Shown: one piece after another, positions 1-17,720 of the stretch
Layout of the letters: each line of letters opens with the position of its first letter
How positions within the stretch are numbered: the stretch's first letter is position 1
Source: an uncultured Chromatiales bacterium
Lineage (GTDB): Bacteria; Pseudomonadota; Gammaproteobacteria; SZUA-140
Direction of reading: 5' to 3'
Length of the DNA stretch: 64,000 bases
NCBI GenBank assembly: GCA_964437335.1
Contig: CAYTGL010000011.1
Coordinates: 6,990 to 70,989 of the forward strand
Translations under genes and position numbers: made by a program
The notes under the pieces: generated by a model
What the model saw: only the letters and a program-made list of their open reading frames with translations
What the model was told of the DNA's origin: nothing
Databases searched by the model: none

Positions 1-670
1 CTGCCTCCCGACCTTCGTAGAAATAGACGACAACATACTTGCAGCCCCTCATGAACTCTCTGATTTCCTCAAATGTTCCAGAAAGATCTTTTCCGGTGGG
101 GCTGCCAGCCCTTGTGCGAAACACAGCGATCAGACAGTCGGACTTCGGGATTAATTCCTCATTTATCATTCCCTGTGGTCGTCCTCGAAGTCCAGGGGTG
201 GCGTGAGTTTCCCACTTTACAGGTTCCAGCATTATGTGGTTGTCGGCGTTATGGGCAGCGTTCCACCGGAGGATGCTGTCTGTGATTGCTTGTCGCTCTT
301 TGGTCGCATCACCCGGCGAACCGATCATTACCCCAATTCTGCGATACATCGATTGTCCACCTTTTGTCGTGAACTCCACATGGTCAACGATTGATCGGGC
401 GGCATTCTGGCCTGCTGCTGTGATCCACAGACTGAGTGAAGTCGATGATCGTAGTTTGCCGATAAGCCCCAGCTGGTTTAGGCGAGACACCAGACCTTCA
501 AGCTCTTCGTAGGTCAACTGCAACTCGGAGATGGCTCGTGCATGTGTAGTCTTCGTCTCTTCGGGCGTCGTCCAGTGTCGGTCTAGTCCGATCATGCCCG
601 ACTGGTCTGGGGATGTGCAGTGTTTGTCGAGATACCGAAGAAGCGACAACTCAACAGCGGTCAGTTTCAT
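1..670 (-). CDS. Hypothetical protein, N-terminal ~223 codons only (ORF continues past the window start); start ATG at 670
   Basis: Manual translation of the minus strand from 670 is open to position 1 (MKLTAVELSLLRYLDK...IGVMIGSPGDATKERQAITDSI...); weak resemblance to DUF4062-type N-terminal domains. Absent from the ORF track because no stop lies inside the window. Confidence 0.45.
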   Translation of the reverse strand, partial: MKLTAVELSLLRYLDKHCTSPDQSGMIGLDRHWTTPEETKTTHARAISELQLTYEELEGLVSRLNQLGLIGKLRSSTSLSLWITAAGQNAARSIVDHVEFTTKGGQSMYRRIGVMIGSPGDATKERQAITDSILRWNAAHNADNHIMLEPVKWETHATPGLRGRPQGMINEELIPKSDCLIAVFRTRAGSPTGKDLSGTFEEIREFMRGCKYVVVYFYEGREA

Positions 671-691
671 GGACTGTCACCTTTCTTCGGC

Positions 692-2737
692 TCACTCCAC
701 CCCTAACGCCTTGAACGCTGCGTCTCGTGGATCAGAGTAGAAGCTAGTCTGGAACTTGGCGAACAACTCGCCCGGAATCGTCGGGATGTCTCTCACGCTC
801 GCCATTGGCAGCAGGATGCGTTTGGCTCCGCCATCATGGGCGACCTGCAATGACTCGGCCAAGTTCTCGACCGGAATGATGTTGCCGCCCAGGCTCATGC
901 TGCCCAAAACCACCATCTGCGACTGAATTGGTTTGCCAAGGACCGCTGAACAAAGCGCCACGAAGGTCGAAAGCGTCATCGCCGTTGTCGCTCCCGTGTT
1001 GTGCAGTTCAATGACATGCAGGTGATAGTCGTGATCGAGGGCCTTGATCGAGGCGCTGACGTGGCTGGAATTTGCTTTGAAATAGTCGAAGCCGACCTTC
1101 ACTGCCTCCTTGGCCTGGGAGTTTGAGCCGAAGCCCGACATCTTGAGCGAACCGTTGCCCGGTGTCACCTGAGTCTCAATCCGGTACAGGCCCAAGTGTC
1201 CGCCGCTCCCCACAGCCACTGTGTGCATTACACCGGGGTTGAGCGGTCCATCGGGGATCAGGGTTCCACCTCCTTGCTCGGGCACGCCGATGAACTTCTC
1301 CTCCAATGTTTCCAGGTCGATGTAGGAGAAGTGAACGTCGTAAAACTCCATCCCGCCGATCTTCTTCAGTTGTTCCTTTACCCGACGCCGTGTTTCCAGG
1401 GCGTACTCCAGGCAGCGCCGCACCGCCTCTTTGTCGTATTCCTCGTTTGGATAAAGCAATTTCAGCAGGCCGGAAACGGTATGCTTGACGGCAATCGTAT
1501 CCCGCTGGTTCAAATCACGGCCCAGGCGAAAATACTTGCTAATCGCATCACCGAAGTTTCGCTTTCGCATTTCCCGCATGTACTCGGCCAAATAATCCAC
1601 GATCAGCCCGTACTGGTTCGTGAAGAACTCGGGCCGCATCTTGGGAATTTCCCAACCGGGGATATAGGAATGGAAGCGGTCGAAAAAGGCAGAGTCGATC
1701 ATGGCTTCCGGGAACGGTGCAAGCAGGTGGCTGGTTTTCACCAGCGTATCTACCGACTGATTGATGTTGCCGACGAAGACCATTGCCGCATAGGCCGAGA
1801 TCGAGTCTTTCCCACGGGCGAATGAACCGGAGGCCATGTAATCCTTCATGATCTGTATCCCGTCCTTATCCTTGAACGAGATGCCCGCCACTTCATCGAA
1901 GGCCACCACGTCCCACAGCCCCACCAAGCCCATCTTTCCTCGACCGATATTGTTGTAGAAGAGGTTGGGGACGCTCGTTTGGCCCCCGGAGATTAGGATG
2001 CTGTAGGGGCTGATCTCTTTGTAGATGTGGCTCTTTCCAGTGCCCCTTGGGCCAAGCTCACAGACGTTGTAATTGTTTTCGACTAAAGGCACCATGCGGC
2101 AGAGAATGTGCCACTTCACCCGTTGCTCGAATTGCGTCGGTTCGTAACCGCAGGACCGCAGTAGCACGTCGATCCACTGTTCTTCGGTGAAGTTCCGACG
2201 ACCGGCGAACACCTCTTCCATATCCATGCCTGGCATCTGGATCGGCTTGAGGTCTTCAACGATGAAGGGCGACCCCTTCTGTCCCTCCTCGAAGAAATAC
2301 TGCATCGTAATGATGCACCAAATGCCGCCTGCCAGCAGCTTCTCGTATTTCTTGATGAAGCTCGTCGAAATCTCCGCCCCTTTGACTCCCAAGTTGAGAA
2401 GTTGGGCTTCATACACGTCACGGCGTTCATTGAGCGTGACGTTCACCTTGTCGATGATCTTGTAGCTCCCTCGCTCACGAATCACCGACTTTACCTTTTC
2501 GGATTCGTCGGGACGGACATAATTCTCGGCCAGAATTTTTTTGACCGTTTGCAGGCCGTCTTGGATCATCTCCTCATCATTCGAGGCGCAGTGCGATCCC
2601 AGCAGGTATTCAAGGACATAAACGGGGACGTTGGCCCCTTCCTTCACCAGCTTGGTAAGGTCTTTGCGCACGACCTTGCCAGGGAAGTGCTGATTGAGCA
2701 AGTCGTCCAGCCCAGTGTCGATAGTCTCAGAAGTCAT
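692..2737 (-). CDS. brxL: BREX type 1 Lon-like protease BrxL
   Basis: 681 aa; N-terminal MTSETIDTGLDDLLNQHFPGKVVRKDLTKL...VYVLEYLLG matches the conserved BrxL N-terminus; Walker-like GPRGTGKSH; Lon-protease-like C-terminus; 11-bp overlap with pglZ. Confidence 0.9.
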   Translation of the reverse strand: MTSETIDTGLDDLLNQHFPGKVVRKDLTKLVKEGANVPVYVLEYLLGSHCASNDEEMIQDGLQTVKKILAENYVRPDESEKVKSVIRERGSYKIIDKVNVTLNERRDVYEAQLLNLGVKGAEISTSFIKKYEKLLAGGIWCIITMQYFFEEGQKGSPFIVEDLKPIQMPGMDMEEVFAGRRNFTEEQWIDVLLRSCGYEPTQFEQRVKWHILCRMVPLVENNYNVCELGPRGTGKSHIYKEISPYSILISGGQTSVPNLFYNNIGRGKMGLVGLWDVVAFDEVAGISFKDKDGIQIMKDYMASGSFARGKDSISAYAAMVFVGNINQSVDTLVKTSHLLAPFPEAMIDSAFFDRFHSYIPGWEIPKMRPEFFTNQYGLIVDYLAEYMREMRKRNFGDAISKYFRLGRDLNQRDTIAVKHTVSGLLKLLYPNEEYDKEAVRRCLEYALETRRRVKEQLKKIGGMEFYDVHFSYIDLETLEEKFIGVPEQGGGTLIPDGPLNPGVMHTVAVGSGGHLGLYRIETQVTPGNGSLKMSGFGSNSQAKEAVKVGFDYFKANSSHVSASIKALDHDYHLHVIELHNTGATTAMTLSTFVALCSAVLGKPIQSQMVVLGSMSLGGNIIPVENLAESLQVAHDGGAKRILLPMASVRDIPTIPGELFAKFQTSFYSDPRDAAFKALGVE

Positions 2738-5348
2738 CGCTGAATGCCTTATCGATAATCACGTCCACGCTCGACTGTTCGATGTCCGTGTCGGCATCCC
2801 GCAGCACGAGCCGGTACTTTGTCTTCTTGTTGAATTGCCGGTCTTCAAGCACCAGCACCACCTGCTTCGTCCGCTCTTCCATGTTGTCCGAGCCACTATC
2901 GAAGGTCACCTTCTCAATGTTCGTCACTGGCTCGTTGCCCTCGAAGATTGCCACCTTGAGGGTAATCGGTTTGACCCGGTCGCTCACGGCCTCGGTCTGA
3001 AGAAGCTGAAAGCGGTACTTGGGCGTCGTAATTCGATGATTGACGCCCAGCACCTGCACACCCACCCGCCGTGCTGCTGTTTCGCCCTTGGTCTTCCCTT
3101 TGACGTGCCGCACGGTCACCACTGGCACTACAATTTCCTGCGGCATGGTGCCGCCGTGGATGTAGCGAGCACCCCCGGTGAAGTGGAACAGGTTCACCGC
3201 CCTCGGAATCCAGAACTCCATGTCGCCTTCCGCCTGGGCCGTCGTTTTCGTGCTGCCATGGTAAGCTTCGTCCACGTCTGGCAAATTACGCCCCAGAAGG
3301 TAACGCTTCTTGGCAAGTATCGTGCCGGGGGGCTTGTCTTCCAGCTTGCTCTTATGCGGCTCAGACGGAGGCGTCTCACGGAACAGGAAGCCATGGTCAG
3401 CGGTCACCACCACGTAATTGCCGTTCAGGCTGTTGATCACAAATCGCACGAGTTCGCCCACTTCGTCAATCGTCTTACGCACGGCATCAAATGTGTCGCC
3501 TTCGGTGGCCAGCTTTTCTCCCCGGCTATCGATCTCATCGTGGTAGATGTAAACCACCTTCTTCCCAGCAACCAGGTCTCGGCCTTCTTCCTTCTTCATC
3601 GCCAACAGCACGTCAGCCTTTACCGCCATGCCATCGACAGCGGCCAGAATTTCGTTTCGCTGCTCTAGCGACCCGCACGACTTGCCATCGACCAGGATGT
3701 GTCCCTTGGCATGATATTCCAGCGTCTTGTGTGGCAGCAGACTTGCCATGCCCAAGGCGGTGTGTGACGGCAGCACGCTTAACTGCGAACCCAGCGATGC
3801 CTCAATTCGATACTTGCCGTTGAGTTCCTGCTTGAGTTCCTGGGCCGCCTCATAACGGAAGCCGTCGCTGATAATCACATACGCCCTACGATTCTCGGCC
3901 TCTTTCAGGCGAGGCTCAACATGATTGCGGTAGAAGTGGTACTGATTGGGAACGTCCGGGATCTTCCAGTTAGAAAGCATTCCGCCTTCGACGAACTTGC
4001 CCCAGGCCAGGGCGAATGTGGGGATGAACCAGTTCGTGTAGGCCGCTTCCACTTGCTCCCGCAACTCCTTGACGATGTTGCCGTATTGGCAGATGTCTGA
4101 GAACTCGCAGAAATGCCGGTAAAGCTGATCAAATAGGAATAGTTCGTCCTCATAAGCCCGGTACATCGCTTGGGCGCTGTCGAAGTCGAATCCCTTACGG
4201 TGAGAGTTTTGCAAGTGGAAGAATTCGGCAGCGGTTACCAGCGCCTCGTAGGCCGCATGAAGTTCCTTTCGACGAACCGAGGGGGAGCCAGACACGGTAG
4301 GGGAAGCCCAATGCCCGGATTGCCGCCTACCCGCAATCTCTCGCACTTCCTCGACATCGATTGTGTCGGCAGTGGCGATCACCCGGTCCCGCAGATGGCA
4401 GGCAATCTCAAACTCAACGCCCGTAAAGGTCATCACGTCGATCAGATGGTCGATTTCAAAAGCATGCAAGTGGTCGTCCAGAGTGATCCGCTGGGCCACG
4501 TATTCCGCCAGCCCGTCATAACTGCCACCTTTGCTGGAACTGTCCCGCCAATTCGCCAGGCAAACGACCGTGTTGGCTCGTCCGGCTTGCGGGAGCAGGA
4601 GGTGTTCCAGCGATGTTGGCAGCTTACCGTGAAGATGCTGAGCGAAGTCAGTCACCAACAACCGGATCAACAGGTTCTCCAGGCTGGGCGTTTCCTCGGC
4701 GTATCCAAACGACTTCTTGATAAACCTCCAGAACGGCTCTTCGAGGTCGAATTTTTCGATCTGCTCCCAAGCTGGGATCGGCTCCCTTAGGTCGATGTCC
4801 TCGATGTCGGCGTAAAGTTGGAACAGCGTCCGCAGAATGTTGAATAGTTCCGGTTGGTCGGCCTTCACCACTACCGCAAGCATCTTCCGGTCCAGGTCAT
4901 CTGCCGTGTCTTCGGGTGAGGCCAGCATCTTAAGCTTTTGGAGCCGGTCCTTGTTGTCGAAAAACTTGCGGCGCTGGACCAGATGCTCCCGAAGATGCTG
5001 AGCAGCCAGACCGAGTTCTTGGAGGATGATCGATGCTCGGTCGGCCCGAAAACTGCCGCTGTAGAGCCGAATGTCGAGCAGCCAATCGTTCTCGTAGTCA
5101 GGCTCTTCCTCGGGCGAGTAGACCAGGAACTTTGAGTCTGGTTCGCCGTGCTCCACTCGCAGTTTGGTTTCCAACGCCCCGGTTCTATCCAGTCGGATGA
5201 CCTGTACGCCATCGATGGGCGAAAAAAGCTGGCCTGTCAGGTAACCCACAAATTCCTTATCAGGATCATTCCAAAAAACGATCCGCTCTTCTCGGAAGAG
5301 TTTGTCGAGGGCGTCATTGACTTGTTTGGTGTCCATAAGAATCGTCAT
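2727..5348 (-). CDS. pglZ: BREX alkaline-phosphatase-superfamily protein PglZ
   Basis: 873 aa; N-terminus MTILMDTKQVNDALDKLFREERIVFWNDPDKEF is typical PglZ; sits between the methyltransferase and brxL in the operon. Confidence 0.9.
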   Translation of the reverse strand: MTILMDTKQVNDALDKLFREERIVFWNDPDKEFVGYLTGQLFSPIDGVQVIRLDRTGALETKLRVEHGEPDSKFLVYSPEEEPDYENDWLLDIRLYSGSFRADRASIILQELGLAAQHLREHLVQRRKFFDNKDRLQKLKMLASPEDTADDLDRKMLAVVVKADQPELFNILRTLFQLYADIEDIDLREPIPAWEQIEKFDLEEPFWRFIKKSFGYAEETPSLENLLIRLLVTDFAQHLHGKLPTSLEHLLLPQAGRANTVVCLANWRDSSSKGGSYDGLAEYVAQRITLDDHLHAFEIDHLIDVMTFTGVEFEIACHLRDRVIATADTIDVEEVREIAGRRQSGHWASPTVSGSPSVRRKELHAAYEALVTAAEFFHLQNSHRKGFDFDSAQAMYRAYEDELFLFDQLYRHFCEFSDICQYGNIVKELREQVEAAYTNWFIPTFALAWGKFVEGGMLSNWKIPDVPNQYHFYRNHVEPRLKEAENRRAYVIISDGFRYEAAQELKQELNGKYRIEASLGSQLSVLPSHTALGMASLLPHKTLEYHAKGHILVDGKSCGSLEQRNEILAAVDGMAVKADVLLAMKKEEGRDLVAGKKVVYIYHDEIDSRGEKLATEGDTFDAVRKTIDEVGELVRFVINSLNGNYVVVTADHGFLFRETPPSEPHKSKLEDKPPGTILAKKRYLLGRNLPDVDEAYHGSTKTTAQAEGDMEFWIPRAVNLFHFTGGARYIHGGTMPQEIVVPVVTVRHVKGKTKGETAARRVGVQVLGVNHRITTPKYRFQLLQTEAVSDRVKPITLKVAIFEGNEPVTNIEKVTFDSGSDNMEERTKQVVLVLEDRQFNKKTKYRLVLRDADTDIEQSSVDVIIDKAFSDDF

Positions 5349-5944
5349 TTCGTCGGCAACGGTGGAACTGTCTTCGTTGGCTCATCGAGCCAAATGTGAA
5401 TCACGCTGTCAAGGTTATTCAGGCAGTTCCAGAAATACGGGAATGCGTTCTGCAATGTCGCCTCCTGAATCTCACGAACTTGCTCCTCTTCGTCCAATTC
5501 GTTGACATTCACATGAAAGAGACCGCCATAGCCGTAGAACAGCTTCTCAACAGCGGCCTCAACGGTTTGATTCGCCCCGTGGAAGAAGCGATGATCGTTT
5601 ATTGGCAGACGACCCAATGTTTCCGACCATTTCTTGCGAACGTACCGAGTCCATGCCAAGAGGTCTTGTCGGTCACAGCACTGATTCACGATGTTGTGGA
5701 TGCGATTGAAGTTGATCGAGTCTTGCAGAAGAAATTGTCGCAGTAGTGGCAGTTGTGCCTGAAACGCAACCTTATCGTAGCCCTCAAAACTGGAGTCGAT
5801 CTGGCCGGTGGGAAATGTGATCTTCGTTGAATACTTGAAGGTTACGCCGCCACTCTGGACGATGCTACTTTGGCGCAGGCGATTCACTTGCCGCTGATAC
5901 GCACGGAGAATGATTAATTCGTCGTTTGTCAAAGCTCGTGTCAT
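5345..5944 (-). CDS. Hypothetical protein (199 aa) embedded in the BREX operon between pglX and pglZ
   Basis: ATGA-type 4-bp overlaps on both sides (its stop overlaps the pglZ start at 5345-5348; its start overlaps the stop of the 178-aa ORF at 5941-5944); no recognisable motif. Confidence 0.6.
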   Translation of the reverse strand: MTRALTNDELIILRAYQRQVNRLRQSSIVQSGGVTFKYSTKITFPTGQIDSSFEGYDKVAFQAQLPLLRQFLLQDSINFNRIHNIVNQCCDRQDLLAWTRYVRKKWSETLGRLPINDHRFFHGANQTVEAAVEKLFYGYGGLFHVNVNELDEEEQVREIQEATLQNAFPYFWNCLNNLDSVIHIWLDEPTKTVPPLPTK

Positions 5945-6477
5945 GCTTGCGTCTCGCTTTCGCCGTCGAACTCCTTGCCGTACTTTTCATACATGAAGCC
6001 GAGAGCGTTCAGCGCCTGTGGTGAACCGCTCTCAAGTGGTTGCGCTCCAGTTATTAGAGTCTGGCGAAGGGATTGAACCGTTTGCGTAATCGTCCCCTGG
6101 TCAAACCCTTGGATTTGCGATGTTCGCAGGGAGAAATCCTGGTGGTAGGCCGCTACGCCGGAGGTAAGCAATGTGCCTGAATCGGTATCCAAGACAAGCA
6201 GCGTTGGATCAACGTCGTAGCACTTCTGGTTATTTTTGTCGGCGTCCACTCGATACGGTGCGATTAACATCCAGTCACGTCTAGTCGAAGGATCGCCAGA
6301 AACGGCAACCTCAATGTGCGTGCATTTGTCGAGGAACTGCGACGGATGTACTTCAAGGCTCGCCCTTTGCTGGTAGTCGGGAATGTCATATACCTTGACG
6401 TTATTGCTGCCGACGTCAGCCCACAGCTTCGACGCCGCATCATGCTTGTCTTCAAACCATCTTTCTTTGGCACCCAT
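5941..6477 (-). CDS. Hypothetical protein (178 aa) embedded in the BREX operon directly downstream of pglX
   Basis: Starts 10 bp after the pglX stop (6488), same strand; 4-bp overlap with the 199-aa ORF; no recognisable motif. Confidence 0.6.
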   Translation of the reverse strand: MGAKERWFEDKHDAASKLWADVGSNNVKVYDIPDYQQRASLEVHPSQFLDKCTHIEVAVSGDPSTRRDWMLIAPYRVDADKNNQKCYDVDPTLLVLDTDSGTLLTSGVAAYHQDFSLRTSQIQGFDQGTITQTVQSLRQTLITGAQPLESGSPQALNALGFMYEKYGKEFDGESETQA

Positions 6478-6487
6478 GATCTAGCTC

Positions 6488-9400
6488 CTATTCTTTGTCC
6501 TTAGTTCCTGATACCGCCTTCACTTCCGCCAACAAATCACCGAACTTGCCGTAATTCGCTTTTACGCCGTCGTCGAGGTCGAGCTTGATGCGATGGTCGG
6601 CGTAGTGACGGAGCTTTTCGTCGAATGATTGAACCTCGGCCAGCTGTTTGACAACAGTCGCCTTTTCTGTCTCCAGACGCTTTTTATGTTGGCTGGAAGT
6701 GGCGGCGGCGATTTCGTCCGTCAAGTGGTCGATGCGGGCAGTCATCTTACCGAGCAGTGGAATCACGTACTCAGTGCGCATCCGAGCCAGGGTGCTTTCG
6801 TTGTAGCGGTGGAGGTAGACGAGGGCCTGAAAGCCACGCTGCTTGCCGCTAGAGAAGAGCCAGTAGATGGGCCGCCGCTTGTAGAGCGACAGGTGATGCT
6901 TGTAGAAGTCGGCAGCGAGATAGCGACGGATAGTGTCTCGTGGCGACTCGCCTTTCTTATCGCCCAGGCTCTCGGCCACGAACTTGAGGTTCTCCTCCAG
7001 ATGCTCCTTCGGCCATGCGGTGGCGACGAACTTCTCAAATCGACTGGCGGCATCGTCGGGGAACCAGTGGAACTCGGTGAGCGGAATGATCCCATCTTCG
7101 TCAGCCGGGAAATTGTGGTATTTCGATGGATCGAAGCCGACGTTACCGCTGTGGGCATAGATCAGCCCCGGCTCATCGAGGCTGTACCGGCCCATCATAC
7201 AGCCGGTGGAATAGGAGATGAGCCGCTTGATGTCTTCTTCACAATTAGGGCGATAGAGGGTAATGTGATCATCGGATACTTCCGGGGAGAGTTCATCTTG
7301 GAGACCGTAGGCACGGATCACCGCTTCATTGTTTTTTATTTCGGCTGCCTTCATGTTCCGCAGTATGTCATGGCAACGAGTTACCCATCGTTGATGGGAC
7401 AGACGCACGAGCGGTTCATCAGACCCGCTGCTGGGCAGCAAATCAAGTGTTGAAAAGTCCCACGAATACTCTGAATAATTCCAATCGTTTTTGTGTTGGC
7501 GTACGATTTTCTCAACTAGATCAGAGTCCACTGAGGACAGTGGTGGCACTGGGAGCGTCCTGATTTGACCTACTTCAAAGCCAACTGTTGGGCTGACGAT
7601 TTGCAGGAGCGAGGTTGTTACCGTGCTGTTGAGAATTCCGATAAGGCCAAGCATGTCGTTGGCGTTACTGCAATAAATCCCGCATCCCTTATGACCGATT
7701 ACAAAACCTTCACCGAAAGCTCGAAAAGATGGTGCAGCAATAGAAATAAGACTCCACGTAATTCCAGGCTTGAAATAATATGACTCTGATGGGCACTGGT
7801 TTCCCACGGTTTTCAGCACTTCGTATGAGGCTGCATCAAAGGAAAGGACAAACTCGTTATTCCCGTACCACCTGCGAAATGCCCCTCCCTTATTGTACGG
7901 GAACCACTTTGCGTCACTTTGCCATGCACTGGTCCGAGAATGATGGCCGAATCCTAGTTTTGAACAGGCGACCTCGAACCAGTACCTGATAAAGCGGTCG
8001 TTGTCTCCAGTCGCAAGACCTTGGCGAAGCGTCGCTGACTCTCCCAAAGATGGCATCTCTGCAAAACAATTTCTTGTACGGTCGCTTATCCAATATGCCA
8101 GCGGAGAACCGGGGATTTTCCTGAATTCGTGTCCAGAGGTCTGATAGGGATTCGCCGCTTGGAATCGACGCTGCAACTCGTCGTTGCTTGCAACGCTTCC
8201 CTGCTTTTCAAATAGCTTTAAGTAACTCCCTCGCAATTCTGGCATTACCATATTGCGGAACGTAAAAGCGCAGGTGCCAAAATCTGAACCAAACACTCCA
8301 CGACCATTGTGAACAAAGGTTTCAAATGATTGATGGTTGACTAGACTCTGCCGCATGTCTTGGAACGATGAAAGAAACATCCAGTTCGGAATTGTAATCA
8401 TTCCAACGATTCCGTTGGCTGCCGCAAAACTAGTGTTTCGAGAAATGAAGCAGCCGTATAAATCAGCTTTTGCACTCGTGTATACTGCCGTTACGAACTG
8501 CTTTAGTTGTTTGGAATAATATTTCCCTCCCATGTAGGGCGGATTTGAAACGACTGCTTTGTATTGTCGTGCCAGTAAGACAGTCTGTTTAAGCATCGGC
8601 CAGAATGACAGTGCCGTAGCACTTTCGAACATCCCGCCTTCCATCGTCACAGACCGCACTCGAACAAGAGTCGTTGCCAGGTGATCGGACAACAGCTTTG
8701 GCACCCGAATCAACGAGCCAAACGTCTTGCCGTGCGCAAACAACTCGATCAATTGCGAAACATCTGCCTGCGAGATGTCGCCAGTTGAGCCATCAGGTAA
8801 TGGCGCATTGATCGCTTCCGTAATCTCCTTGGCATCCAGTCCCTTGCTCTCTTGAATCGACAGCACATGCGGCTGCACGCCTCGCTCGAAGATGCTGCGG
8901 TCGTCGGCTCGGGCCTTCATCATCAAGGCGAAGGCGGCAAGCTGTGCAGCCCGGTCGTCGATCTCCAAGCCGTAGAGATTCTTCTCCAAGATCAGCCGGG
9001 GGATGTCCTTGGCCCGGTAGCCTCGCTCTTGGTAGATCGCCTTCAGCAAGTCATAAGCCTCGACCAGGATGTGACCGGAACCGCAAGCCGGATCGAGGAG
9101 CGTGAGTTCCTCCGGGTTCAGACCGTCTGGCGTGATCTCGGCCAGCTTCGCCTGCACTTCCGGCGTTTGCTCGGCAGGCTCGATGTAGTATTCCATCCAG
9201 TATCGCTGATCACCCTCGTTCTCGGGCTTCGTGGACAGCGGCGAGTCGGGGTAGGTGGCGACCCACTGGCGGCCAAGGCTATTCTGCACCAGATACTTGA
9301 CGATCCAATTCGGCGTAAAAAGTTGCGTGGCGGCGGGAATGTCCTCGCTCTTGACCACCTTGCCAATGACCTGATCCTTCTTTTCGCTAATGTAGAACTG

Positions 9401-10033
9401 GTACAACCAGCCGATGATCTCAACGTCCTGCCAGCCCTCCTCGGGAATCTCGTTGATCAGATTGCGAATGAGTGAATCGGAGTGCAGCAAGTGATCGGGC
9501 AGGAGCAATTCCGTCTCATCGTCGATTGACTCGAACAAAAACGGCATCGCCTTTTGCAGAGCGTTGCACTGCGCCAACAGCAGCATCCGGTAGAGTTCTT
9601 CCTCTTTGGTGCCATCGAGCTTGAGTTCGACCACCTTCTTCTTGTCAAGGTCCGGCAGATCGACATGCTCGGCATGACCCACGATCTCGGGCAGGTAGTG
9701 CCCCTCGGAATGGCTCAACACCCGATAGCCATGCTCCAAGTAACCATGCAATTCCAAAAAGCGGATAGCGACCAGCCGGTTGAACCACGTATAGGCGACC
9801 GCTTCCATCGTTTGCCCGAAACCATCCCGCTTGATGCGAGCTTCGAGCTTCTTTCGCTTTTCGCCCACAGCTTTCGTGTGTGGCTTCCCAGCGATGATCG
9901 CCACATCGCCTTCGACCGTCATCGGCTCGATCTTCTTGGCGGTCAGTCCATACTGCGCAGCACGGCTCGTCACCGCCTCGATAAAATCACGGCGAGCCTG
10001 GGGAGCGTAGGATTTGAGCTTGTTGCGGTTCAT
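6488..10033 (-). CDS. pglX: BREX adenine-specific DNA methyltransferase PglX
   Basis: 1181 aa; NPPY catalytic motif (VVSNPPYMGGKYY); AdoMet-binding LDPACGSGHIL; N-terminus MNRNKLKSYAPQARRDFIEAVTSRAAQ typical of PglX. Confidence 0.9.
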   Translation of the reverse strand: MNRNKLKSYAPQARRDFIEAVTSRAAQYGLTAKKIEPMTVEGDVAIIAGKPHTKAVGEKRKKLEARIKRDGFGQTMEAVAYTWFNRLVAIRFLELHGYLEHGYRVLSHSEGHYLPEIVGHAEHVDLPDLDKKKVVELKLDGTKEEELYRMLLLAQCNALQKAMPFLFESIDDETELLLPDHLLHSDSLIRNLINEIPEEGWQDVEIIGWLYQFYISEKKDQVIGKVVKSEDIPAATQLFTPNWIVKYLVQNSLGRQWVATYPDSPLSTKPENEGDQRYWMEYYIEPAEQTPEVQAKLAEITPDGLNPEELTLLDPACGSGHILVEAYDLLKAIYQERGYRAKDIPRLILEKNLYGLEIDDRAAQLAAFALMMKARADDRSIFERGVQPHVLSIQESKGLDAKEITEAINAPLPDGSTGDISQADVSQLIELFAHGKTFGSLIRVPKLLSDHLATTLVRVRSVTMEGGMFESATALSFWPMLKQTVLLARQYKAVVSNPPYMGGKYYSKQLKQFVTAVYTSAKADLYGCFISRNTSFAAANGIVGMITIPNWMFLSSFQDMRQSLVNHQSFETFVHNGRGVFGSDFGTCAFTFRNMVMPELRGSYLKLFEKQGSVASNDELQRRFQAANPYQTSGHEFRKIPGSPLAYWISDRTRNCFAEMPSLGESATLRQGLATGDNDRFIRYWFEVACSKLGFGHHSRTSAWQSDAKWFPYNKGGAFRRWYGNNEFVLSFDAASYEVLKTVGNQCPSESYYFKPGITWSLISIAAPSFRAFGEGFVIGHKGCGIYCSNANDMLGLIGILNSTVTTSLLQIVSPTVGFEVGQIRTLPVPPLSSVDSDLVEKIVRQHKNDWNYSEYSWDFSTLDLLPSSGSDEPLVRLSHQRWVTRCHDILRNMKAAEIKNNEAVIRAYGLQDELSPEVSDDHITLYRPNCEEDIKRLISYSTGCMMGRYSLDEPGLIYAHSGNVGFDPSKYHNFPADEDGIIPLTEFHWFPDDAASRFEKFVATAWPKEHLEENLKFVAESLGDKKGESPRDTIRRYLAADFYKHHLSLYKRRPIYWLFSSGKQRGFQALVYLHRYNESTLARMRTEYVIPLLGKMTARIDHLTDEIAAATSSQHKKRLETEKATVVKQLAEVQSFDEKLRHYADHRIKLDLDDGVKANYGKFGDLLAEVKAVSGTKDKE

Positions 10034-10452
10034 CCGTTCTCGATTTCTTTCTCGTCATGTTGTACGGGAAACACACCTCGACCACTGTCAGATCGTTCGA
10101 TGGCTCCGGCCAACACAATCGGCGATAATCTTTGAAGAAGTTCAAGTAGGTCAGGCCAATCGAACACTCGCACCACGCAGCTTTGATACATCGTCACAAT
10201 CGTTACAATCCATGCTGGAGTCTCCTTGAGGTGACGACTAGCGGATGAGCCACGAACATACTCCCAGAGAGAGAAACAAAAGCTGTTCGTGCCGCCGTAT
10301 TGCTTAGTCTCCATATAGCCAAAATCTGGAAGGTATGAACTCCATTCACCTCTGAATTCATCTTCACCAAAGTAGACCGAGGAAACCGATATAAAATGGC
10401 CATTCTTGAAGATGTAGTGGTCTTGAGACAAGGCATGCACTCCTAAAGACAA
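10030..10452 (-). CDS. Hypothetical protein (140 aa) embedded between brxC and pglX
   Basis: Stop overlaps the pglX start by 4 bp (10030-10033); the segment is visibly AT-richer than the flanking BREX genes; no recognisable motif. Confidence 0.5.
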   Translation of the reverse strand: MSLGVHALSQDHYIFKNGHFISVSSVYFGEDEFRGEWSSYLPDFGYMETKQYGGTNSFCFSLWEYVRGSSASRHLKETPAWIVTIVTMYQSCVVRVFDWPDLLELLQRLSPIVLAGAIERSDSGRGVFPVQHDEKEIENG

Positions 10453-10472
10453 CGGTGATTCGATTTAGGCTC

Positions 10473-13400
10473 CTACCGAATTTGAACCCGTTCACCCCTA
10501 GCGACAGCTTCTTCCAACTCTCTTCGCAAGGCATCCAGGAAGCCTTCAACGTCTTCCTGAGTTTCCAGGTACGTTGTCTTAACCATGGACGATGGCCTTA
10601 TTTCTTTGCGTGGCTTGACTACCACAACTGGCTCATCGCTCTTCTTCGTCTGCTCGTGCTTCTTCTTGAGAAACTCGTCGATCTTCGCCAATGCCCCATC
10701 GAGTGCCCGCTCCGCTTCCTGCACAGCCTGGGCAATGTGGGCCACGCTTTCTTGCTTCTCAACCGACTTTCGCAGTGACTCCAACGGCCCTAAGCAGCTT
10801 GAGCGGAGACTCTCTTCACTACCGAACTTCTCGACCTCCTGCGTAAGCTGTGACTGCAACTCATTGATGCGGGCCAGGGCCTCGACTCGTCGTTGGCTGA
10901 CAATGGCCGAATTGGTCCCCTCGACCGTCGTGATTAGTGCTTCGGCCTCATGGACGAGGTTGTAGGGGCTGGGGGCAGAAAGGATTTCTTGCATTCTCCC
11001 TAACGATTTGCGGGCCTTTTCGTCCCGTTCCAATTCCAACCTATTCAGGCCGAAGCGGTCGTGGGCCTTGCGTAGCTTTTCCCAGGTCGGCTTTTGATAC
11101 CGGTAGAAGTTGTCGATGTCGTGGAACTCTTCCGCCAAGTCAAGTAGTTCGGCTTTGTTCTCGATGAATCGAGCTATAAACTTACCCGGCTCGTCGGCAG
11201 CCAAGAGTGCCTTGATGACTAACAGGCCGTCCGTGATCTCGGTTTGGCCTGGGTAGTTGCCCGTGTCGGCCAGAGTCTTGTATTGCAACAGCGACGACTG
11301 CCAAGCCTGGCACTTCCCCTTAAGGAACTCGAATAGCCCGTCTTCGCTGTCTGGTCCCATTTCGGAGAAAACGTCTTTGCCCAGGTTGCGACATTGTTGC
11401 AGCACCTTGGGATCGGTCATTTTGCGACGGACGACGGTGATGCTTCGCTGCTTGCGGGGAGCAGTGATGTTCTCGAACACCTTGTCCATAGCGATGGAAG
11501 CACCGTTGGTCACTAATTGGATTTCCCCCAACACAAGCAACCTGGCGACAAGGATCAGCACTTCATCGTTTGACCAGCCATACGGTCGCTTTTCATAGCG
11601 GTCGAGCATGTCGAACAATACGACGGGGTGATTGGCCCGATCTGAGAGGCCAATGAACTCACGCACTTCCTCCAGCGCCCGGTCGTTGACGCCCGACATG
11701 GCTGCCTTTTGAATGTCGTTGGCTCGCAGAATCGCTTGCAGTTCTCGCTTTGGCTCATCACTGAACTTGGTGACGTAGGCCATCTTGGAGAAGCTGTTGT
11801 CGATTAGATACTCCAGCGACTCGTCCAAAGCCGTGAGCGGTGCCGATGATTTGATGTCCACTCGTTGGCCGGCAGCGAAGTATGTGGCGTCGGCCATCAG
11901 ATTACCGAGCAGTTGTCGCAGCCGCTCCCGGCGTTCCCGATTATCATCGGCCATGGCTCGGTGGATGCGTTTGGTCGTCTCCGGCAGTGTATCGTCCGAT
12001 TTGGCTCGCAGGAACTTCTCAGTTTGGAGGTACTGCCGTAGTTCACGGGCCAGGTTGGGATCGTCGTTGATCTTTATGATGATTTGCCCGCCATCCTGGC
12101 CACTTTCCCGTTGGAACCGAGCGTCTTCGAACAACTCAGGGTCGGCTTCCCCCAATGGCGTGAAGACCTGAACGGTTAGGTCTTTGTCCACTCGGCTGCC
12201 GTAGGGAAAAGCATCGCAAACTCGATTGAACGAAAAGTCCATTTTGTTCGCTTGGTAGCGATGTTTGCGTGTGCCCTTGAGAACATCATCGAAGACAATT
12301 TCTCCCAGTACCTTGGCTTCTTCGCTGCTGGAGAGATCGACCGACTTGATCTCCCGGTTAATGTCCCGTTCTTCATTGGTGAGGAAGAAGAAGTTATCGC
12401 CGCTACGGTTGATCAGCGTTTCTTTTTCCAGCCGCAGCAGCGACTCCTCGATTCGCTTCTTGAGCGCCAATCGGTCGGCGTCAATCTCATCGATGCAGAG
12501 GGTGGTCAGATTATCGATGTTTCCTCGAATTTCATCCACGTAGCGAATGAGGAACAATACCCGCAGAACGTCGATGTCGAAAGGCTTGAGGCTGGCGTTC
12601 TCCTGAGCCTGGTCGATGGTTCGTTTGACGGCAGTGTCGAGGAAAGATTCGATGGACGGATAGAAGCGGTACAGTGGCACCAGCACACCAACTTCGGCAT
12701 CGGCAACGGCTTTACCTGCCGATTGAAAGGCGTCGAGGATCGACCGCTCACCCCGAGATAGGTGTAGACCTGTTGCCCCCGCTTTGCGAATCGCCTCAAA
12801 AATGCGCTGCACTAATTGGAACTGGTAAGGGGCAAACGGATAGTTACGGCAAAAGTCGTCGCTATCCTTGTACTTATTGAAGGTCATCCCTACGTTGTGG
12901 AACGAAAGCTGGTTGCGAAGGATGTCTCCCTTCTCCCGAAAGATGTCTTCCAGCTTGCCTTGCACGGCGTCCCACTTCGCTAACAGCCGCTCCTGAATGA
13001 CTTCGTCCACGTTGGCGCTGGAGAGCGATAAGCGGGTCTTGAATCGGCCTTGAATCTTGGAAAAGTCGTGCGACTTTGTGCTGCGCAAATCTCCCAGCAC
13101 GGCGTCGATATCTTCCTGAGAGGTAACCACCACCCACGCTCGGCCATTACACATGGTTCCCAGGTCTTCGGTGATCGTTTGCAAATTGAGCATCAGATGG
13201 GTATCGCCACCGATAAACTGGCCGACTTCATCGACGAGGAAGATAATGCGATGTTCCGGCCCTTGGCGGTCGAGGTATTCCTTCACCCATTTGCAGAAGT
13301 TCTCGACTGTGAGGGAGAAGTTGTCTTCGGCTTTGTCGATCCACTTTGCACAAGATTCCTTGGACTGCCCAAGTGTAGCGGCCAGTGCCTCGACCACTTC

Positions 13401-14036
13401 GTCCCGGTTAAACTCATAGGCGTCCCGTTCAGCGAGCCAGTTATTGCCCGTGGCCTTTTCAAACGCTTTGTGAAATGTGGGGAGCAGCCCTTTTTCGTCG
13501 AGGTATCGCTCCATGTGGGCGATGTGAGGATGATCGGGGCTGTAGCCCTGCATTTCGTTCAGGACTTTCAGGAAGACGGCCAATATGGCATCTCGTCCGG
13601 CCCGAGTATCCGCCTTGCTGTCGATATTGAACAGGATGACATCGGTATGGGAGCCAACGGCCCGCTTGATGTCGCCGTAGAGCATGGCGTCCTTGACCTT
13701 GCTCTCGAAGAAATCGACGGCTGGCTTGGACTCACCATTGTGCTGATGCGCCTCGTTAGCAAGCAGGTAGGACAAGATCTTGATGAAGTGCGATTTGCCC
13801 GAGCCAAAGAAGCCCGATATCCAAACGCCGATCCGCCCCGACAGATCTGTGTCCTTAGGGTGGTCAATCGCCTCCACATAGGAGGAGAAGAACTTGCGGA
13901 AGTGCTGGTCGAGTTCCTTGGTAACTACGAACTCATCTAATTCTTGCCAGACGGTGTTTTCATCTAGCTGGTCCGCTTTCACGACGCCGTTGATTGGACG
14001 GTCAATCGGCTTCCTAAATAGCTCGTTGATCTGCAT
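10473..14036 (-). CDS. brxC: BREX ATPase BrxC (PglY-like)
   Basis: P-loop GFFGSGKSHFIKILSYLL. The conserved BrxC N-terminus MQINELFRKPIDRPINGVVKADQ begins at the internal Met at ~14036; the ORF-track start at 14213 would overlap brxB by 165 bp, so the internal start is preferred (position +/-1 nt). Confidence 0.88.
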   Translation of the reverse strand: MQINELFRKPIDRPINGVVKADQLDENTVWQELDEFVVTKELDQHFRKFFSSYVEAIDHPKDTDLSGRIGVWISGFFGSGKSHFIKILSYLLANEAHQHNGESKPAVDFFESKVKDAMLYGDIKRAVGSHTDVILFNIDSKADTRAGRDAILAVFLKVLNEMQGYSPDHPHIAHMERYLDEKGLLPTFHKAFEKATGNNWLAERDAYEFNRDEVVEALAATLGQSKESCAKWIDKAEDNFSLTVENFCKWVKEYLDRQGPEHRIIFLVDEVGQFIGGDTHLMLNLQTITEDLGTMCNGRAWVVVTSQEDIDAVLGDLRSTKSHDFSKIQGRFKTRLSLSSANVDEVIQERLLAKWDAVQGKLEDIFREKGDILRNQLSFHNVGMTFNKYKDSDDFCRNYPFAPYQFQLVQRIFEAIRKAGATGLHLSRGERSILDAFQSAGKAVADAEVGVLVPLYRFYPSIESFLDTAVKRTIDQAQENASLKPFDIDVLRVLFLIRYVDEIRGNIDNLTTLCIDEIDADRLALKKRIEESLLRLEKETLINRSGDNFFFLTNEERDINREIKSVDLSSSEEAKVLGEIVFDDVLKGTRKHRYQANKMDFSFNRVCDAFPYGSRVDKDLTVQVFTPLGEADPELFEDARFQRESGQDGGQIIIKINDDPNLARELRQYLQTEKFLRAKSDDTLPETTKRIHRAMADDNRERRERLRQLLGNLMADATYFAAGQRVDIKSSAPLTALDESLEYLIDNSFSKMAYVTKFSDEPKRELQAILRANDIQKAAMSGVNDRALEEVREFIGLSDRANHPVVLFDMLDRYEKRPYGWSNDEVLILVARLLVLGEIQLVTNGASIAMDKVFENITAPRKQRSITVVRRKMTDPKVLQQCRNLGKDVFSEMGPDSEDGLFEFLKGKCQAWQSSLLQYKTLADTGNYPGQTEITDGLLVIKALLAADEPGKFIARFIENKAELLDLAEEFHDIDNFYRYQKPTWEKLRKAHDRFGLNRLELERDEKARKSLGRMQEILSAPSPYNLVHEAEALITTVEGTNSAIVSQRRVEALARINELQSQLTQEVEKFGSEESLRSSCLGPLESLRKSVEKQESVAHIAQAVQEAERALDGALAKIDEFLKKKHEQTKKSDEPVVVVKPRKEIRPSSMVKTTYLETQEDVEGFLDALRRELEEAVARGERVQIR

Positions 14037-14047
14037 CGCCCCTGCTC

Positions 14048-14623
14048 CTATGGAATTAGCCGAAAGGCACGGTAGTAGTTGTCGCTTCTGATTTTTCCGA
14101 ATAGCCTCAGTACAGTGCCGTCGTAGTTGCCGGGGTAAAACGTCACCAGTGGCGTATCCCCCATGATCGAATGGAGGTTGTTTAGTAGAGAGTGCGAACG
14201 AAGGATCGGCCACACGCTGCCGATGCCTGAGAGCAACACGAGGTCTTGCTCTTTCGGTTGGACTTTCACCTCAAACAGCGGCGCTAGTTTCTGCGGGTGA
14301 AGGATCTTCTCCAATTGCCGCAGGACGAAATCGTCGCCTTTGGTCTTCTGGACTTCCAGCGTTTTGTCCAGCAATTTCCGTTCACGCAAATGTTCGATCA
14401 CAAAGTCGAACAGATTGACATGCGTGATATTCATGCCCGACCTGTGCTTGGGGGCGTGCTCCATCAGGAAGGCAATGTGCTTGCGAACTCGCAGTTCCTC
14501 TTCCGGTGGATAGTCGAAAATGAAGAAGGCGATCTCGTTGCCCAGGCCACGACCGCTGAGGAAGTCATCCGAAGTGATCCGGGGCAAAATTTGATTCAGG
14601 CGTTCTTCAAAGTTGGTCGTCAT
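14048..14623 (-). CDS. brxB: BREX protein BrxB (DUF1788)
   Basis: 191 aa; N-terminus MTTNFEERLNQILPRITSDDFLSGRGLGNEIAFFIFDYPPEEE is typical DUF1788/BrxB; 4-bp overlap with brxA. Confidence 0.85.
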   Translation of the reverse strand: MTTNFEERLNQILPRITSDDFLSGRGLGNEIAFFIFDYPPEEELRVRKHIAFLMEHAPKHRSGMNITHVNLFDFVIEHLRERKLLDKTLEVQKTKGDDFVLRQLEKILHPQKLAPLFEVKVQPKEQDLVLLSGIGSVWPILRSHSLLNNLHSIMGDTPLVTFYPGNYDGTVLRLFGKIRSDNYYRAFRLIP

Positions 14624-15210
14624 GTTCCCACCTGAATGCAGCGGAGGACGTATTCTTCGTGTTGCTTATCCAGGTAGCGAAGCACGGGTTTGGCGATGTG
14701 GACCCGCTGAAGTTTACGGGTCTTGGTGCTGTCGATGTAGCCGACCTCTGCCAGGACGGTGTAAACCGACGAACGCAACCGCATGATCGTTGACTCCGCC
14801 CACTGCGGCATGTCGGGATCACGGCCCCGGCAGTCCTCGATGAAATCGTTCCAGACGTTGAGCGAAAGCGATTCTTTGAACGTGCGGTACTGGTCCCGCA
14901 CCACCAGGTCGAGGAAGTCGCCCAGGAGATTGCTGGCCTTTACTGCTGCGGCCAGGCAGGCGTGTGTCGCCTCGGTGCTTGAGCCGTCCCGAACCAGTCT
15001 CCAAAGCGGGGCTTCGACGGAGGAGAGGCGACCACGGATGAGAACCGAAAGCCGCTTGGCGGTTTTCGGGCTGCGGGCCTGGAGGGCGTTCTTCTCGTAT
15101 ATTGCCGCCCGCCATTCCCGGCTGCTGACCTCCCGCAAAAGGAGATCGGCGACTACCCTACTTTCGGGTAGTTTCAACGCTCCTGCGGTTATGTCGGCGC
15201 TGTAACGCAT
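14620..15210 (-). CDS. brxA: BREX protein BrxA (DUF1819)
   Basis: 196 aa; first gene of the operon; MRYSADITAGALKLPESRVVADLLL is the BrxA-type N-terminus. Confidence 0.85.
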   Translation of the reverse strand: MRYSADITAGALKLPESRVVADLLLREVSSREWRAAIYEKNALQARSPKTAKRLSVLIRGRLSSVEAPLWRLVRDGSSTEATHACLAAAVKASNLLGDFLDLVVRDQYRTFKESLSLNVWNDFIEDCRGRDPDMPQWAESTIMRLRSSVYTVLAEVGYIDSTKTRKLQRVHIAKPVLRYLDKQHEEYVLRCIQVGT

Positions 15211-15479
15211 TCTGGCCCCGCTTAATCAGATCGGGAGCCGAAGGCAGCTTCGCCTTCGGAGTCTCCCATCAACGCTTGCAGATTGTAACGGACGACGATT
15301 CGACTGTAAAGTATTTACATAACATCTTTTGTGTTCTACAATCCGGCTTGTTTTTGGCGGTGGCGCTTCCTGGCTGTTCTGGATCACCCTTTTTCGATGA
15401 GGGGCTGAATTGGTTTCCAGGCCCACCAGACGGGTGGTAAGCGGAATCGCCACCACTTCCGTGGTGAGAGGGTGACGAG

Positions 15480-16496
15480 ATGAGCAACCGGATGGCCTTG
15501 GTCGATCCGTATCTGGATGATGTCGAGCAGTGTTCAGGCAATCGCCCTACCAGTTTTGTTTGCCCGATCCTGTTAGAGGAGTCAGCTGGAGTCGAACTTA
15601 TCGACGGTCACATTCTGCCTCAACGGTTGAAGACTGCGGCGAGGGCGACGGTACTCCAGCGCAAGGACGTGGACAACTTCTTCGGCCACACAATTGAGCC
15701 ACCGCTGATCGAATTCTTGAACAGTATCACGCACAACAAAGCCAACTTTTTGGAGCAGGCGAAAGGAATTCAGATTGTAAGCGTGAATGCTGGACCACTC
15801 GATCTTTTCGTCCCCAACCGGAAGTCGAACCCCCCCTTCCCTAAGCTCCGGTTCCAAGACAGCAAGGGGGTGACGATTGCCTCTCGGCACGTCAAAGGGA
15901 CGCTCGCCAACCTTGGCGGCAAAGAGGGATTGGCAGAAGTTCGTGGAAGCATGTCATTCCACAAGCCATCATTGGATGGGGCCTTGCTCAAGTCGCCGCA
16001 TCTAGCGCTGTTCCGCATTGCTGGCTATCGTTGGGCGTTCAGTGCGCCAGGTCGGTATATCGGTACTACGTTGAAGCAGTTCTTTCGTACAGCGGGCGAG
16101 CAATCGGATGCCGAGGCGTTGTTCGCTGAATTCGCAGCAGCCTTTCACGTCATCCTCAATGACACATTCTCCTTCAATACGTTGACCGATTCGACTGTCT
16201 TGCTGCATGACTATTTGGACGATCCGCATTCGGTCGATCCATTTGCAATCTCCTGCGTCTTCGCTGTTAACGACCGCACGATTCTAGTGACATTGCCTTT
16301 CTGCTCTGGCGACTGCGATTTTCCAGCACGGCTTGATGATTATCGACGCCTTTTAAGCGATTGGCAACTGAACCATCGAATTATTCGGGCGACATTGAGT
16401 AAGGATGGCATAAAGCCAGAGTCGATCATCCAGATGAAGTACACGGAGAACCCGCCGCAAGAATTGATTCGGCCAATACGGTGCGAGGAAGAATGA
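15480..16496 (+). CDS. Hypothetical protein (338 aa), divergent from brxA
   Basis: Long ORF with good coding appearance; possible CP...DGHI..P HNH-like pattern near the N-terminus (weak). Confidence 0.55.
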   Translation: MSNRMALVDPYLDDVEQCSGNRPTSFVCPILLEESAGVELIDGHILPQRLKTAARATVLQRKDVDNFFGHTIEPPLIEFLNSITHNKANFLEQAKGIQIVSVNAGPLDLFVPNRKSNPPFPKLRFQDSKGVTIASRHVKGTLANLGGKEGLAEVRGSMSFHKPSLDGALLKSPHLALFRIAGYRWAFSAPGRYIGTTLKQFFRTAGEQSDAEALFAEFAAAFHVILNDTFSFNTLTDSTVLLHDYLDDPHSVDPFAISCVFAVNDRTILVTLPFCSGDCDFPARLDDYRRLLSDWQLNHRIIRATLSKDGIKPESIIQMKYTENPPQELIRPIRCEEE

Positions 16497-16580
16497 ACGC
16501 AACATTCGAGGTCATTGTTATCCCTAATAGGCAGATAACAAGTACATTCAAACAGTAGTCGAATTCGTGGAGCATTTGCT

Positions 16581-17294: not shown

Positions 17295-17414
17295 CGACAT
17301 CTCAGTCTCCGCCCTAACTTCTCCTCCATCTCATATTCGTGGACACCATCTCAGAACTCGCCTGCTGACTCATTGTGGTAGAATCTGCTTTTTTTCCCCA
17401 AAGGACTGTGAACG

Positions 17415-17720
17415 ATGCCTGGTAGTTCTGAAGTAGGCTATTCCGACCGCACCAAGATTCAAATTGATTTCTTTCGTCACCTAACGACATTGAACGCAAG
17501 CGTACTTGGTTTTTATGCAGCGATTTTTCGAGAGAGGGTTAGTTGGATTGTGTGCGGGATCGTGTTGGCTTCTCTAATTGGAAGTCTTGCAACGCAGTTG
17601 ATTTTGGTAATTTGGCCAGTTGACGATAAACTTAAATGGTATCAGTGGGTTCCCATGTTAATGTGCGAGGGGTTGTTTCTTATCGGCGTTGTCGCAGTTC
17701 TATATCATTTAACACGCTGA
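17415..17720 (+). CDS. Small membrane protein (101 aa, two predicted transmembrane helices)
   Basis: Hydrophobic stretches WIVCGIVLASLIGSLATQLILVIW and GLFLIGVVAVLYHL; follows the nuclease gene on the same strand. Confidence 0.45.
   Translation: MPGSSEVGYSDRTKIQIDFFRHLTTLNASVLGFYAAIFRERVSWIVCGIVLASLIGSLATQLILVIWPVDDKLKWYQWVPMLMCEGLFLIGVVAVLYHLTR

Follow-up and report, generated by a model that had tools for sequence, protein, structure and literature searches.

Two small genes between pglX and pglZ of a type 1 BREX operon as candidate, separately exchangeable accessory factors

The stretch of DNA analysed here, referred to as the window, is 64,000 nucleotides long (contig CAYTGL010000011.1, positions 6,990 to 70,989) and carries on its minus strand, at 692-15210, a full type 1 bacteriophage exclusion (BREX) operon in canonical order. 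Our subject is two small open reading frames (ORFs), called ORF-A and ORF-B, that lie on the same strand between the pglX and pglZ genes of this operon. A reading made earlier from the letters of the DNA, hereafter the sequence-only reading, had placed both ORFs in a type 1 BREX operon, and all six genes of such an operon were indeed found in order by Pfam. The features of the operon, in window coordinates, are as follows:

692-2737, minus: brxL, 681 amino acids; Pfam BrxL_N, BrxL_ATPase and Lon_C, with BrxL at E 2e-144
2727-5348, minus: pglZ, 873 amino acids; Pfam PglZ at E 2e-60
5345-5944, minus: ORF-B, 199 amino acids, ATG start, isoelectric point 6.5
5941-6477, minus: ORF-A, 178 amino acids, ATG start, isoelectric point 4.7
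6485-6489, minus: AGGAG, a Shine-Dalgarno-like element read from the sequence, 7 nt upstream of the ORF-A ATG and straddling the pglX stop codon
6488-10033, minus: pglX, encoding the 1181-amino-acid BREX N6-adenine methyltransferase; Pfam Eco57I, MmeI_Mtase and N6_Mtase
10030-10452, minus: a third, orphan ORF between brxC and pglX, 133-140 amino acids, taken from the ORF list; no Pfam match
10473-14213, minus: brxC; Pfam BrxC domains
14048-14623, minus: brxB, 191 amino acids; Pfam BrxB at E 8e-42
14620-15210, minus: brxA, 196 amino acids; Pfam BrxA at E 1e-48
15282-15310, minus: a sigma-70-like promoter match upstream of brxA, 10 of 12 positions; a match to the consensus only

Both ORFs are packed tightly into this operon. 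The pglX stop codon, TAG, occupies 6488-6490 and leaves a 10-nt gap to the ATG of ORF-A at 6477; the stop codon of ORF-A overlaps the start of ORF-B at 5941-5944 ('gcaagcATGAcacg', an ATGA overlap), and that of ORF-B overlaps the first ATG of pglZ at 5345-5348 in the same fashion ('cgaaATGAcgat', again ATGA). Alignments of homologous PglZ proteins begin at residue 4-5, so that the second ATG (5336), 12 nt downstream, is a possible start as well; its use would leave an 8-nt gap after ORF-B in place of the 4-nt overlap, and the packing is tight both ways. A start codon is also at issue for brxC, whose alignments with relatives begin at residue 11-60. With the GTG given in the ORF list, brxC would overlap brxB over 166 nt, so its true start is probably nearer 14040. 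The coordinates, 4-bp overlaps and 10-bp gap of the sequence-only reading are thus all borne out. That reading also held that the two ORFs must be co-expressed with BREX. The tight packing favours this, and from it we infer that ORF-A and ORF-B are co-transcribed with BREX and translationally coupled to pglX and pglZ. Promoter and terminator matches in 1-16000 are not above shuffled controls, and none falls at the ORF-A and ORF-B junctions. An Rfam scan of 1-16000 found no RNA element.

Several observations indicate that ORF-A and ORF-B are genuine genes. Homologues were found in 17 clusters for ORF-A (48-100% identity) and in 46 for ORF-B, or 57 with a profile search (31-100% identity), and the N-termini of these homologues are collinear, which confirms both start codons. 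In comparisons with relatives, non-synonymous differences (pN) amount to 0.09-0.35 per site, and synonymous sites are saturated (pS 0.66-0.81); since the non-synonymous differences are low beside saturated synonymous sites, both genes are, by this measure, under strong purifying selection. Their GC content at third codon positions (GC3) is 0.59-0.60, slightly under the 0.63-0.74 of the BREX genes.

The junction between pglX and pglZ was mapped in 29 related loci (designated by L and a number) using tblastn with the BREX proteins of the window together with called genes. The genome matches, four of four, are Planctomycetota metagenome-assembled genomes, Rubripirellula among these. With A and B standing for the two ORFs, the gene orders are:

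pglX-B-pglZ: L001, L009, L010, L013, L016, L018/L019
pglX-B on short, truncated contigs: L012, L014
B-pglZ on a short, truncated contig: L003
pglX-A-pglZ, no B: L028/L029
pglX-A-B-pglZ: the window, and probably a 1.7-kb contig that appears to carry P0003 and P0019
pglX-RES-A-B-pglZ: L007, in which RES is a 392-amino-acid HEPN_RES_NTD1+RES protein
pglX-[173 amino acids, DUF8426]-B-pglZ: L026
pglX'-B-RES-x287-A-pglZ', a BREX remnant: L008
pglX'-x281-B-RES, a BREX remnant: L004
pglX'-B-RES, a BREX remnant: L027
pglX-A-x250, no pglZ or brxL: L005/L006
B-RES in a defence island, no BREX remnant: L022/L023
B alone: L002, L017 (next to CBASS), L020/L021, L024, L025

Each of the two ORFs therefore occurs on its own. 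ORF-B is found without ORF-A in at least 15 loci and fills the pglX-pglZ slot without it in at least 10, and ORF-A is found without ORF-B in L028/L029, where it occupies the slot, and in L005/L006. By this distribution ORF-B behaves like the default resident of the slot and, in effect, like a lineage-specific seventh BREX gene. It also lies 38-129 nt upstream of HEPN_RES_NTD1+RES genes, on the same strand, in L004, L008, L027 and L022/L023; a tblastn search of the whole 64-kb window found no RES gene.

Other cassettes were encountered in or beside these junctions. The HEPN_RES_NTD1+RES proteins found there are about 395 amino acids long and share an invariant N-terminal CxxC...CxxC; their genes are located at:

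L007, 8795-9973: HEPN_RES_NTD1+RES gene between pglX and ORF-A
L004, 10635-11828: HEPN_RES_NTD1+RES gene
L008, 7910-9097: HEPN_RES_NTD1+RES gene
L022, 10324-11505: HEPN_RES_NTD1+RES gene
L027, 10644-11831: HEPN_RES_NTD1+RES gene

A second cassette family at the same junction comprises x281 (L004, 9150-9995) and x250 (L005, 10566-11318), which are 45% identical to each other and show a PD...E-type motif with a weak PADLOC match to PD-T7-1 (E 0.003). In L015 (136-1458) the 3' end of pglX lies on the strand opposite to ORF-B and pglZ, with the breakpoint inside the 5' part of ORF-B, an arrangement that reflects either a genuine inversion or a chimeric assembly.

The history of the junction is recorded in the relationships among its genes. 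In a neighbour-joining tree of ORF-B, BREX-embedded copies extend over the whole tree, the deepest branch (L016) included, which argues that the BREX junction is the ancestral home of this gene; RES-linked copies fall into two separate clades (L022/L023 and L004/L008/L027), and solo copies are interspersed. The BREX backbone of the window is closest to L007/L028, with 80-91% identity in the PglX C-terminus and 77-83% in the PglZ N-terminus, against 53-65% for the same regions in L001. For ORF-B the relationship is the reverse, the window copy being 81-83% identical to those of L001/L009 and only 55% to that of L007. Because ORF-B and its backbone are closest to different loci, we conclude that ORF-B was swapped in as a cassette, the breakpoints coinciding with the gene borders or lying very close to them. 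ORF-B and RES are likewise incongruent: L007 and L022 share 61% identity in ORF-B and 47% in RES, and for L004 and L022 the values are 42% and 62%. Together, the incongruence of ORF-B with the backbone and with RES indicates that independent modules have been shuffled one gene at a time at a single hotspot. As judged from these sequence comparisons and the gene orders above, ORF-A and ORF-B are independent of each other and do not form a dedicated pair.

PglX of the window (6488-10033) shows a variability of its own. Residues ~400-1000 are 23-57% identical where the N- and C-terminal parts are 80-95% identical, a central hypervariability that would fit an exchange of the target-recognition region.

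Neither ORF product could be assigned to a family or fold. Searches of ORF-A and ORF-B against Pfam, NCBIfam, PADLOC and PHROGs gave a best E-value of 0.1, single-sequence and profile (A1, A2, A3) searches of PDB sequences yielded nothing significant, and no PDB fold matched either protein. Extending the searches to relatives gave the same picture: Pfam identified no family in all 46 ORF-B relatives or in eight distant relatives of the ORF-A family, PADLOC returned isolated noise matches only for all 61 ORF-A-family members, and no relative of either protein has an entry in the database's precomputed Pfam column, which covers more recent families than our local copy does. At E<=10, PADLOC-DB 2.0.0, which we take to include BrxD, BrxE, BrxF, BrxHI/HII, BrxP and BrxR, gave zero families for ORF-A and ORF-B, and no known BREX accessory protein was matched. 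Homology tests were negative for ORF-A with ORF-B, for ORF-A with the 281-amino-acid protein of L004, for ORF-A with the DUF8426 protein of L026, and for both ORFs with the RES proteins. Hidden Markov model scans of all six-frame ORFs in the 29 loci and the window disclosed no hidden additional copies of either gene. No copy was found by tblastn of the window ORF-A and ORF-B against INPHARED/GenBank phages and PLSDB plasmids, nor any relative in IMG/VR viral contigs, where the scan was confined to peptide patterns derived from alignments A1 and A2. The sequence-only reading, in which neither product had a recognisable motif, is thus in line with the family-library and PDB searches; Pfam, NCBIfam, PADLOC, PHROGs and PDB place neither protein in an already characterised family, and both are conserved as ORFs in related loci.

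The conservation of the two proteins is of different kinds. ORF-A is an unannotated alpha/beta single-domain protein. An exhaustive HMMER search uncovered a wider ORF-A family, in which 87 representative clusters pass E<1e-3 and 63 pass E<1e-10; with few exceptions its members are single-domain proteins of 160-235 amino acids. These clusters are drawn at 50% identity, and the 57 clusters of the ORF-B family at 90%. In the ORF-A alignment A3, which holds 61 sequences down to 21% identity, R76, D78 and H112 are invariant and K51, S60, D88, D90, P91 and R118 nearly so. Such a pattern seems to fit a catalytic or ligand-binding site better than a protein that serves purely as a binding partner.

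For ORF-B a confident model was obtained (pLDDT, the predicted local distance difference test, 82), consisting of a helical bundle and a beta-hairpin with no PDB match. Its basic N-terminal helix carries conserved R14, R18, Q19, R22 and R24; R69-Q70-F71 and C90 with R92 are also conserved; an invariant, Gly-rich loop, FYGYGGLFH, contributes F136-G138-G141-L142-F143-H144; and the Pro-rich C-terminal tail, WLDxPxxxVPxxP, is retained in every genomic context, solo copies included. The modelled ORF-B, a helical bundle in which the basic helix, the Gly-rich loop and the Pro-rich tail are the conserved parts, looks non-enzymatic. A HEPN four-helix bundle was considered for ORF-B and rejected: the protein has no Rx4-6H motif and no Pfam HEPN match, helical bundles designed de novo and the helices of ion channels reach scores equal to or above those of HEPN proteins, and Foldseek finds nothing.

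That the pglX-pglZ junction is a known insertion hotspot, as the sequence-only reading stated for other genomes, agrees with the work of Went et al. 2024 (PMC11341690), in which BREX components are separated by further genes in ~7,000 of ~9,000 genomes with pglX and pglZ. In about 5,000 of these ~7,000 the inserted genes include no known defence system; among known inserts, BrxU and PARIS are the commonest (PMC11341690). PARIS (ariA/ariB) in the Salmonella StySA/BREXSty locus resembles the present case in that extra genes sit on the BREX strand at the same junction; it is driven by the BREX promoter and has been proposed as a complementary layer of defence (PMC11341690). PARIS, however, is an obligate pair of an OLD-ABC ATPase (AriA) and a TOPRIM nuclease (AriB), whereas ORF-A and ORF-B are small, single-domain proteins that form no obligate pair, and a PARIS identity was rejected for lack of any AriA or AriB match in Pfam or PADLOC, even at E<=10 in PADLOC. 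BrxU, a GmrSD type IV restriction enzyme, is likewise encoded by a defence gene that forms an accessory part of a BREX operon, but it has ParB/DUF262 and HNH/DUF1524 domains; ORF-A and ORF-B show neither of these, nor any nuclease signature, and the absence of Pfam and PADLOC matches to DUF262 and DUF1524 led us to reject a BrxU/GmrSD identity too. In a 2026 survey (PMC12839542), auxiliary BREX nucleases of the REase, HNH/GmrSD, OLD/TOPRIM, HKD, HEPN, Schlafen and PIN types are treated as backup effectors, and nucleases are all that it lists. RES domains and proteins like ORF-A or ORF-B were not found in its text, the whole word 'RES' being part of the journal abbreviation 'Nucleic Acids Res' in each of the 12 places viewed out of 41. 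Accessory genes of planctomycete BREX, and NTD1-RES within BREX, were the subject of no paper that our literature search brought up. Insertion at pglX-pglZ is already known, then, and what appear to be new are the specific families, the near-fixation of ORF-B in the BREX of one phylum and the association with RES.

The interpretation we favour, with somewhat better than even confidence, is that ORF-A and ORF-B are two independent, separately exchangeable accessory genes in the pglX-pglZ hotspot of a Planctomycetota-lineage type 1 BREX, co-expressed with that system, ORF-B acting as an effector partner and ORF-A as an enzyme-like or ligand-binding factor. Both would be read from the BREX transcript. 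ORF-B, as a latch, adaptor or regulator, would be the non-enzymatic partner of the effector whose gene lies directly downstream, a proposal suggested by its usual position directly upstream of an effector gene and by its non-enzymatic look; that effector would be PglZ in BREX loci and the NTD1+RES protein, of the NAD+-targeting toxin type, elsewhere. ORF-A may be a small enzyme or ligand-binding factor that provides a second BREX layer, as a backup effector or a sensor, by analogy with PARIS and BrxU in other systems. The slot also houses other cassettes of defence type, namely RES and x281, the latter by its weak PD-T7-1-like match.

Several points weigh against this interpretation. Solo copies of ORF-B exist away from any obvious effector (L002, L017, L020/L021, L024 and L025), and because they exist and keep the tail, the partner of ORF-B would not be specific to PglZ or RES; the conservation of the tail everywhere hints instead at a partner common to all contexts. 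The adjacency of ORF-B and RES could be a by-product of two cassettes sharing one hotspot, and L004, L008 and L027 still hold pglX remnants beside their ORF-B-RES genes. For ORF-A the structure model is poor (pLDDT 52.7), so that the description of the protein as enzyme-like is drawn from its conservation pattern. No functional domain or fold match points to a specific activity of either protein. Finally, the loci were gathered by searches with ORF-A and ORF-B, so that the planctomycete BREX loci covered are those with at least one of the two; the context data for ORF-A likewise describe the mapped loci and not the distant members of its family.

In a bolder form of this idea, which we consider improbable, ORF-B has an undescribed fold and serves as a portable "effector latch" that restrains the PglZ nuclease or NTD1-RES and is released when BREX is attacked or bypassed, with ORF-A as a novel small enzyme whose task would be to sense or process the trigger. 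The conceptual model is PrrC, an anticodon nuclease encoded by a latent gene inside the EcoprrI type I restriction-modification locus and restrained by its host system, although PrrC has no sequence or fold similarity to ORF-A or ORF-B. Were this correct, planctomycete BREX would have a built-in guard or abortive-infection layer comparable to PrrC in EcoprrI and PARIS in Salmonella BREX.

The neighbouring RES genes raise the alternative that ORF-B protects against the NAD+-targeting NTD1+RES toxin as its antitoxin or immunity protein, its copies in RES-less BREX loci being orphan antitoxins (anti-addiction factors or remnants) and ORF-A being unrelated; we regard this as unlikely. A small protein gene upstream of a toxin gene is the typical layout of type II toxin-antitoxin systems, and ORF-B followed by RES, 38-129 nt away on the same strand, has this layout in two separate ORF-B clades; L007, moreover, holds RES, ORF-A and ORF-B together. 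The order in L007 is, however, RES-A-B, and ORF-B and RES do not co-diverge. At least 15 loci, moreover, have ORF-B with no RES nearby, and the 64-kb window has none at all, yet purifying selection on ORF-B is strong and its coupling to pglZ tight. In the Xre-RES toxin-antitoxin systems (ParST, MbcTA) the antitoxins have an Xre helix-turn-helix together with a DUF2384/COG5642 domain. The small ORF-B gene closely upstream of RES in L004, L008, L022, L023 and L027 recalls these systems, but ORF-B contains neither the Xre helix-turn-helix nor DUF2384/COG5642 (Pfam and NCBIfam for ORF-B itself, Pfam for its 46 relatives), and the RES proteins here, at ~395 amino acids, bear HEPN_RES_NTD1 and the CxxC...CxxC.

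It is also conceivable, in our estimate with low probability, that ORF-B, and possibly ORF-A, is an integral BREX subunit that bridges or regulates PglX and PglZ and has no role outside BREX, in which case copies that stand alone or beside RES would be leftovers in decay. ORF-B does sit between pglX and pglZ throughout its tree, its packing is tight in all BREX loci, and L004, L008 and L027 have pglX and pglZ remnants beside it. The solo and RES-linked copies are nonetheless intact, with motifs and tail conserved, and ORF-B has been swapped between backbones with no co-evolution with the neighbouring PglX and PglZ. Moreover, the existence of BREX loci that carry ORF-A and lack ORF-B (L028/L029) argues that ORF-B is dispensable for this BREX type.

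We find it very unlikely that ORF-A and ORF-B are selfish or neutral passengers of a recombination-prone junction that contribute nothing to defence. The shuffling of cassettes at the junction, a GC3 slightly under that of the BREX genes and the orphan ORF in the brxC-pglX gap, by which the operon appears to tolerate insertions, are what such passengers would lead one to expect, but long-term purifying selection, packing that is strictly operonic and keeps the reading frame intact in all loci, and neighbours of defence type (RES) in the slot are not, and neither gene turned up when phage and plasmid records were searched with the window proteins or in the IMG/VR pattern scans. Least credible of all is the dedicated two-gene module (a toxin-immunity pair or two-component defence) that the sequence-only reading had proposed from what is seen here: the 4-bp overlap in the window and the A-B order in L007, and probably on the 1.7-kb contig (P0003, P0019), are as such a module would have them, but the presence/absence pattern across related loci has already largely refuted it, with ORF-A alone in L028/L029 and L005/L006, ORF-B alone in at least 15 loci and the two parted by RES and x287 in L008, and the window copies differ in origin relative to the backbone and the families are of unequal size (87 clusters at 50% identity for ORF-A, 57 at 90% for ORF-B).

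The operon holds a further gene that had escaped earlier mention. The third ORF (10030-10452, minus) fills the 439-bp gap between brxC and pglX, its TGA overlapping the pglX ATG such that it is translationally coupled to pglX, with AGGAG before its candidate starts. It has a GC3 of 0.475, and the public annotation calls a protein of 133 or 136 amino acids in a cluster of two members. The ORF is absent from all related BREX loci, and the brxC-pglX spacing is 5-15 nt in L007, L018 and L028. Near the BREX operon, among several ORFs with no Pfam match, are genes with the following Pfam domains:

19427-20578, plus: NOV_C
22073-22990, minus: HNH_2
24404-26416, minus: UvrD-like helicase

The neighbourhood of the operon in the window thus looks like a defence island. 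Among the related loci, the BREX genes of L005 (1181-9953) look broken into many frames, with pglZ and brxL missing, though errors of assembly could account for the frameshifts; they are followed on the other strand by genes for an IS1595 transposase and an N6_N4_Mtase/Mrr_cat protein. Directly after the BREX operon of L007, at 15858-19222, are a 304-amino-acid gene of unknown function and genes for a Piwi-domain protein (439 amino acids) and a SIR2_2 protein (375 amino acids), a set that looks like a short prokaryotic Argonaute-SIR2 system.

How BREX stops phage has yet to be resolved, and genes of unknown function between pglX and pglZ are common, with thousands of BREX loci known from published work to contain them. 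The two ORFs described here define conserved and well-delimited protein families at this position, and ORF-B offers in addition a confident structure model and an informative pattern of presence and absence. Should ORF-B prove to regulate PglZ or RES, it would provide a handle on the control of BREX effectors. If it is not a regulator, the list of candidates will have been narrowed, and the gene-by-gene exchange of cassettes at the junction will still have been shown.

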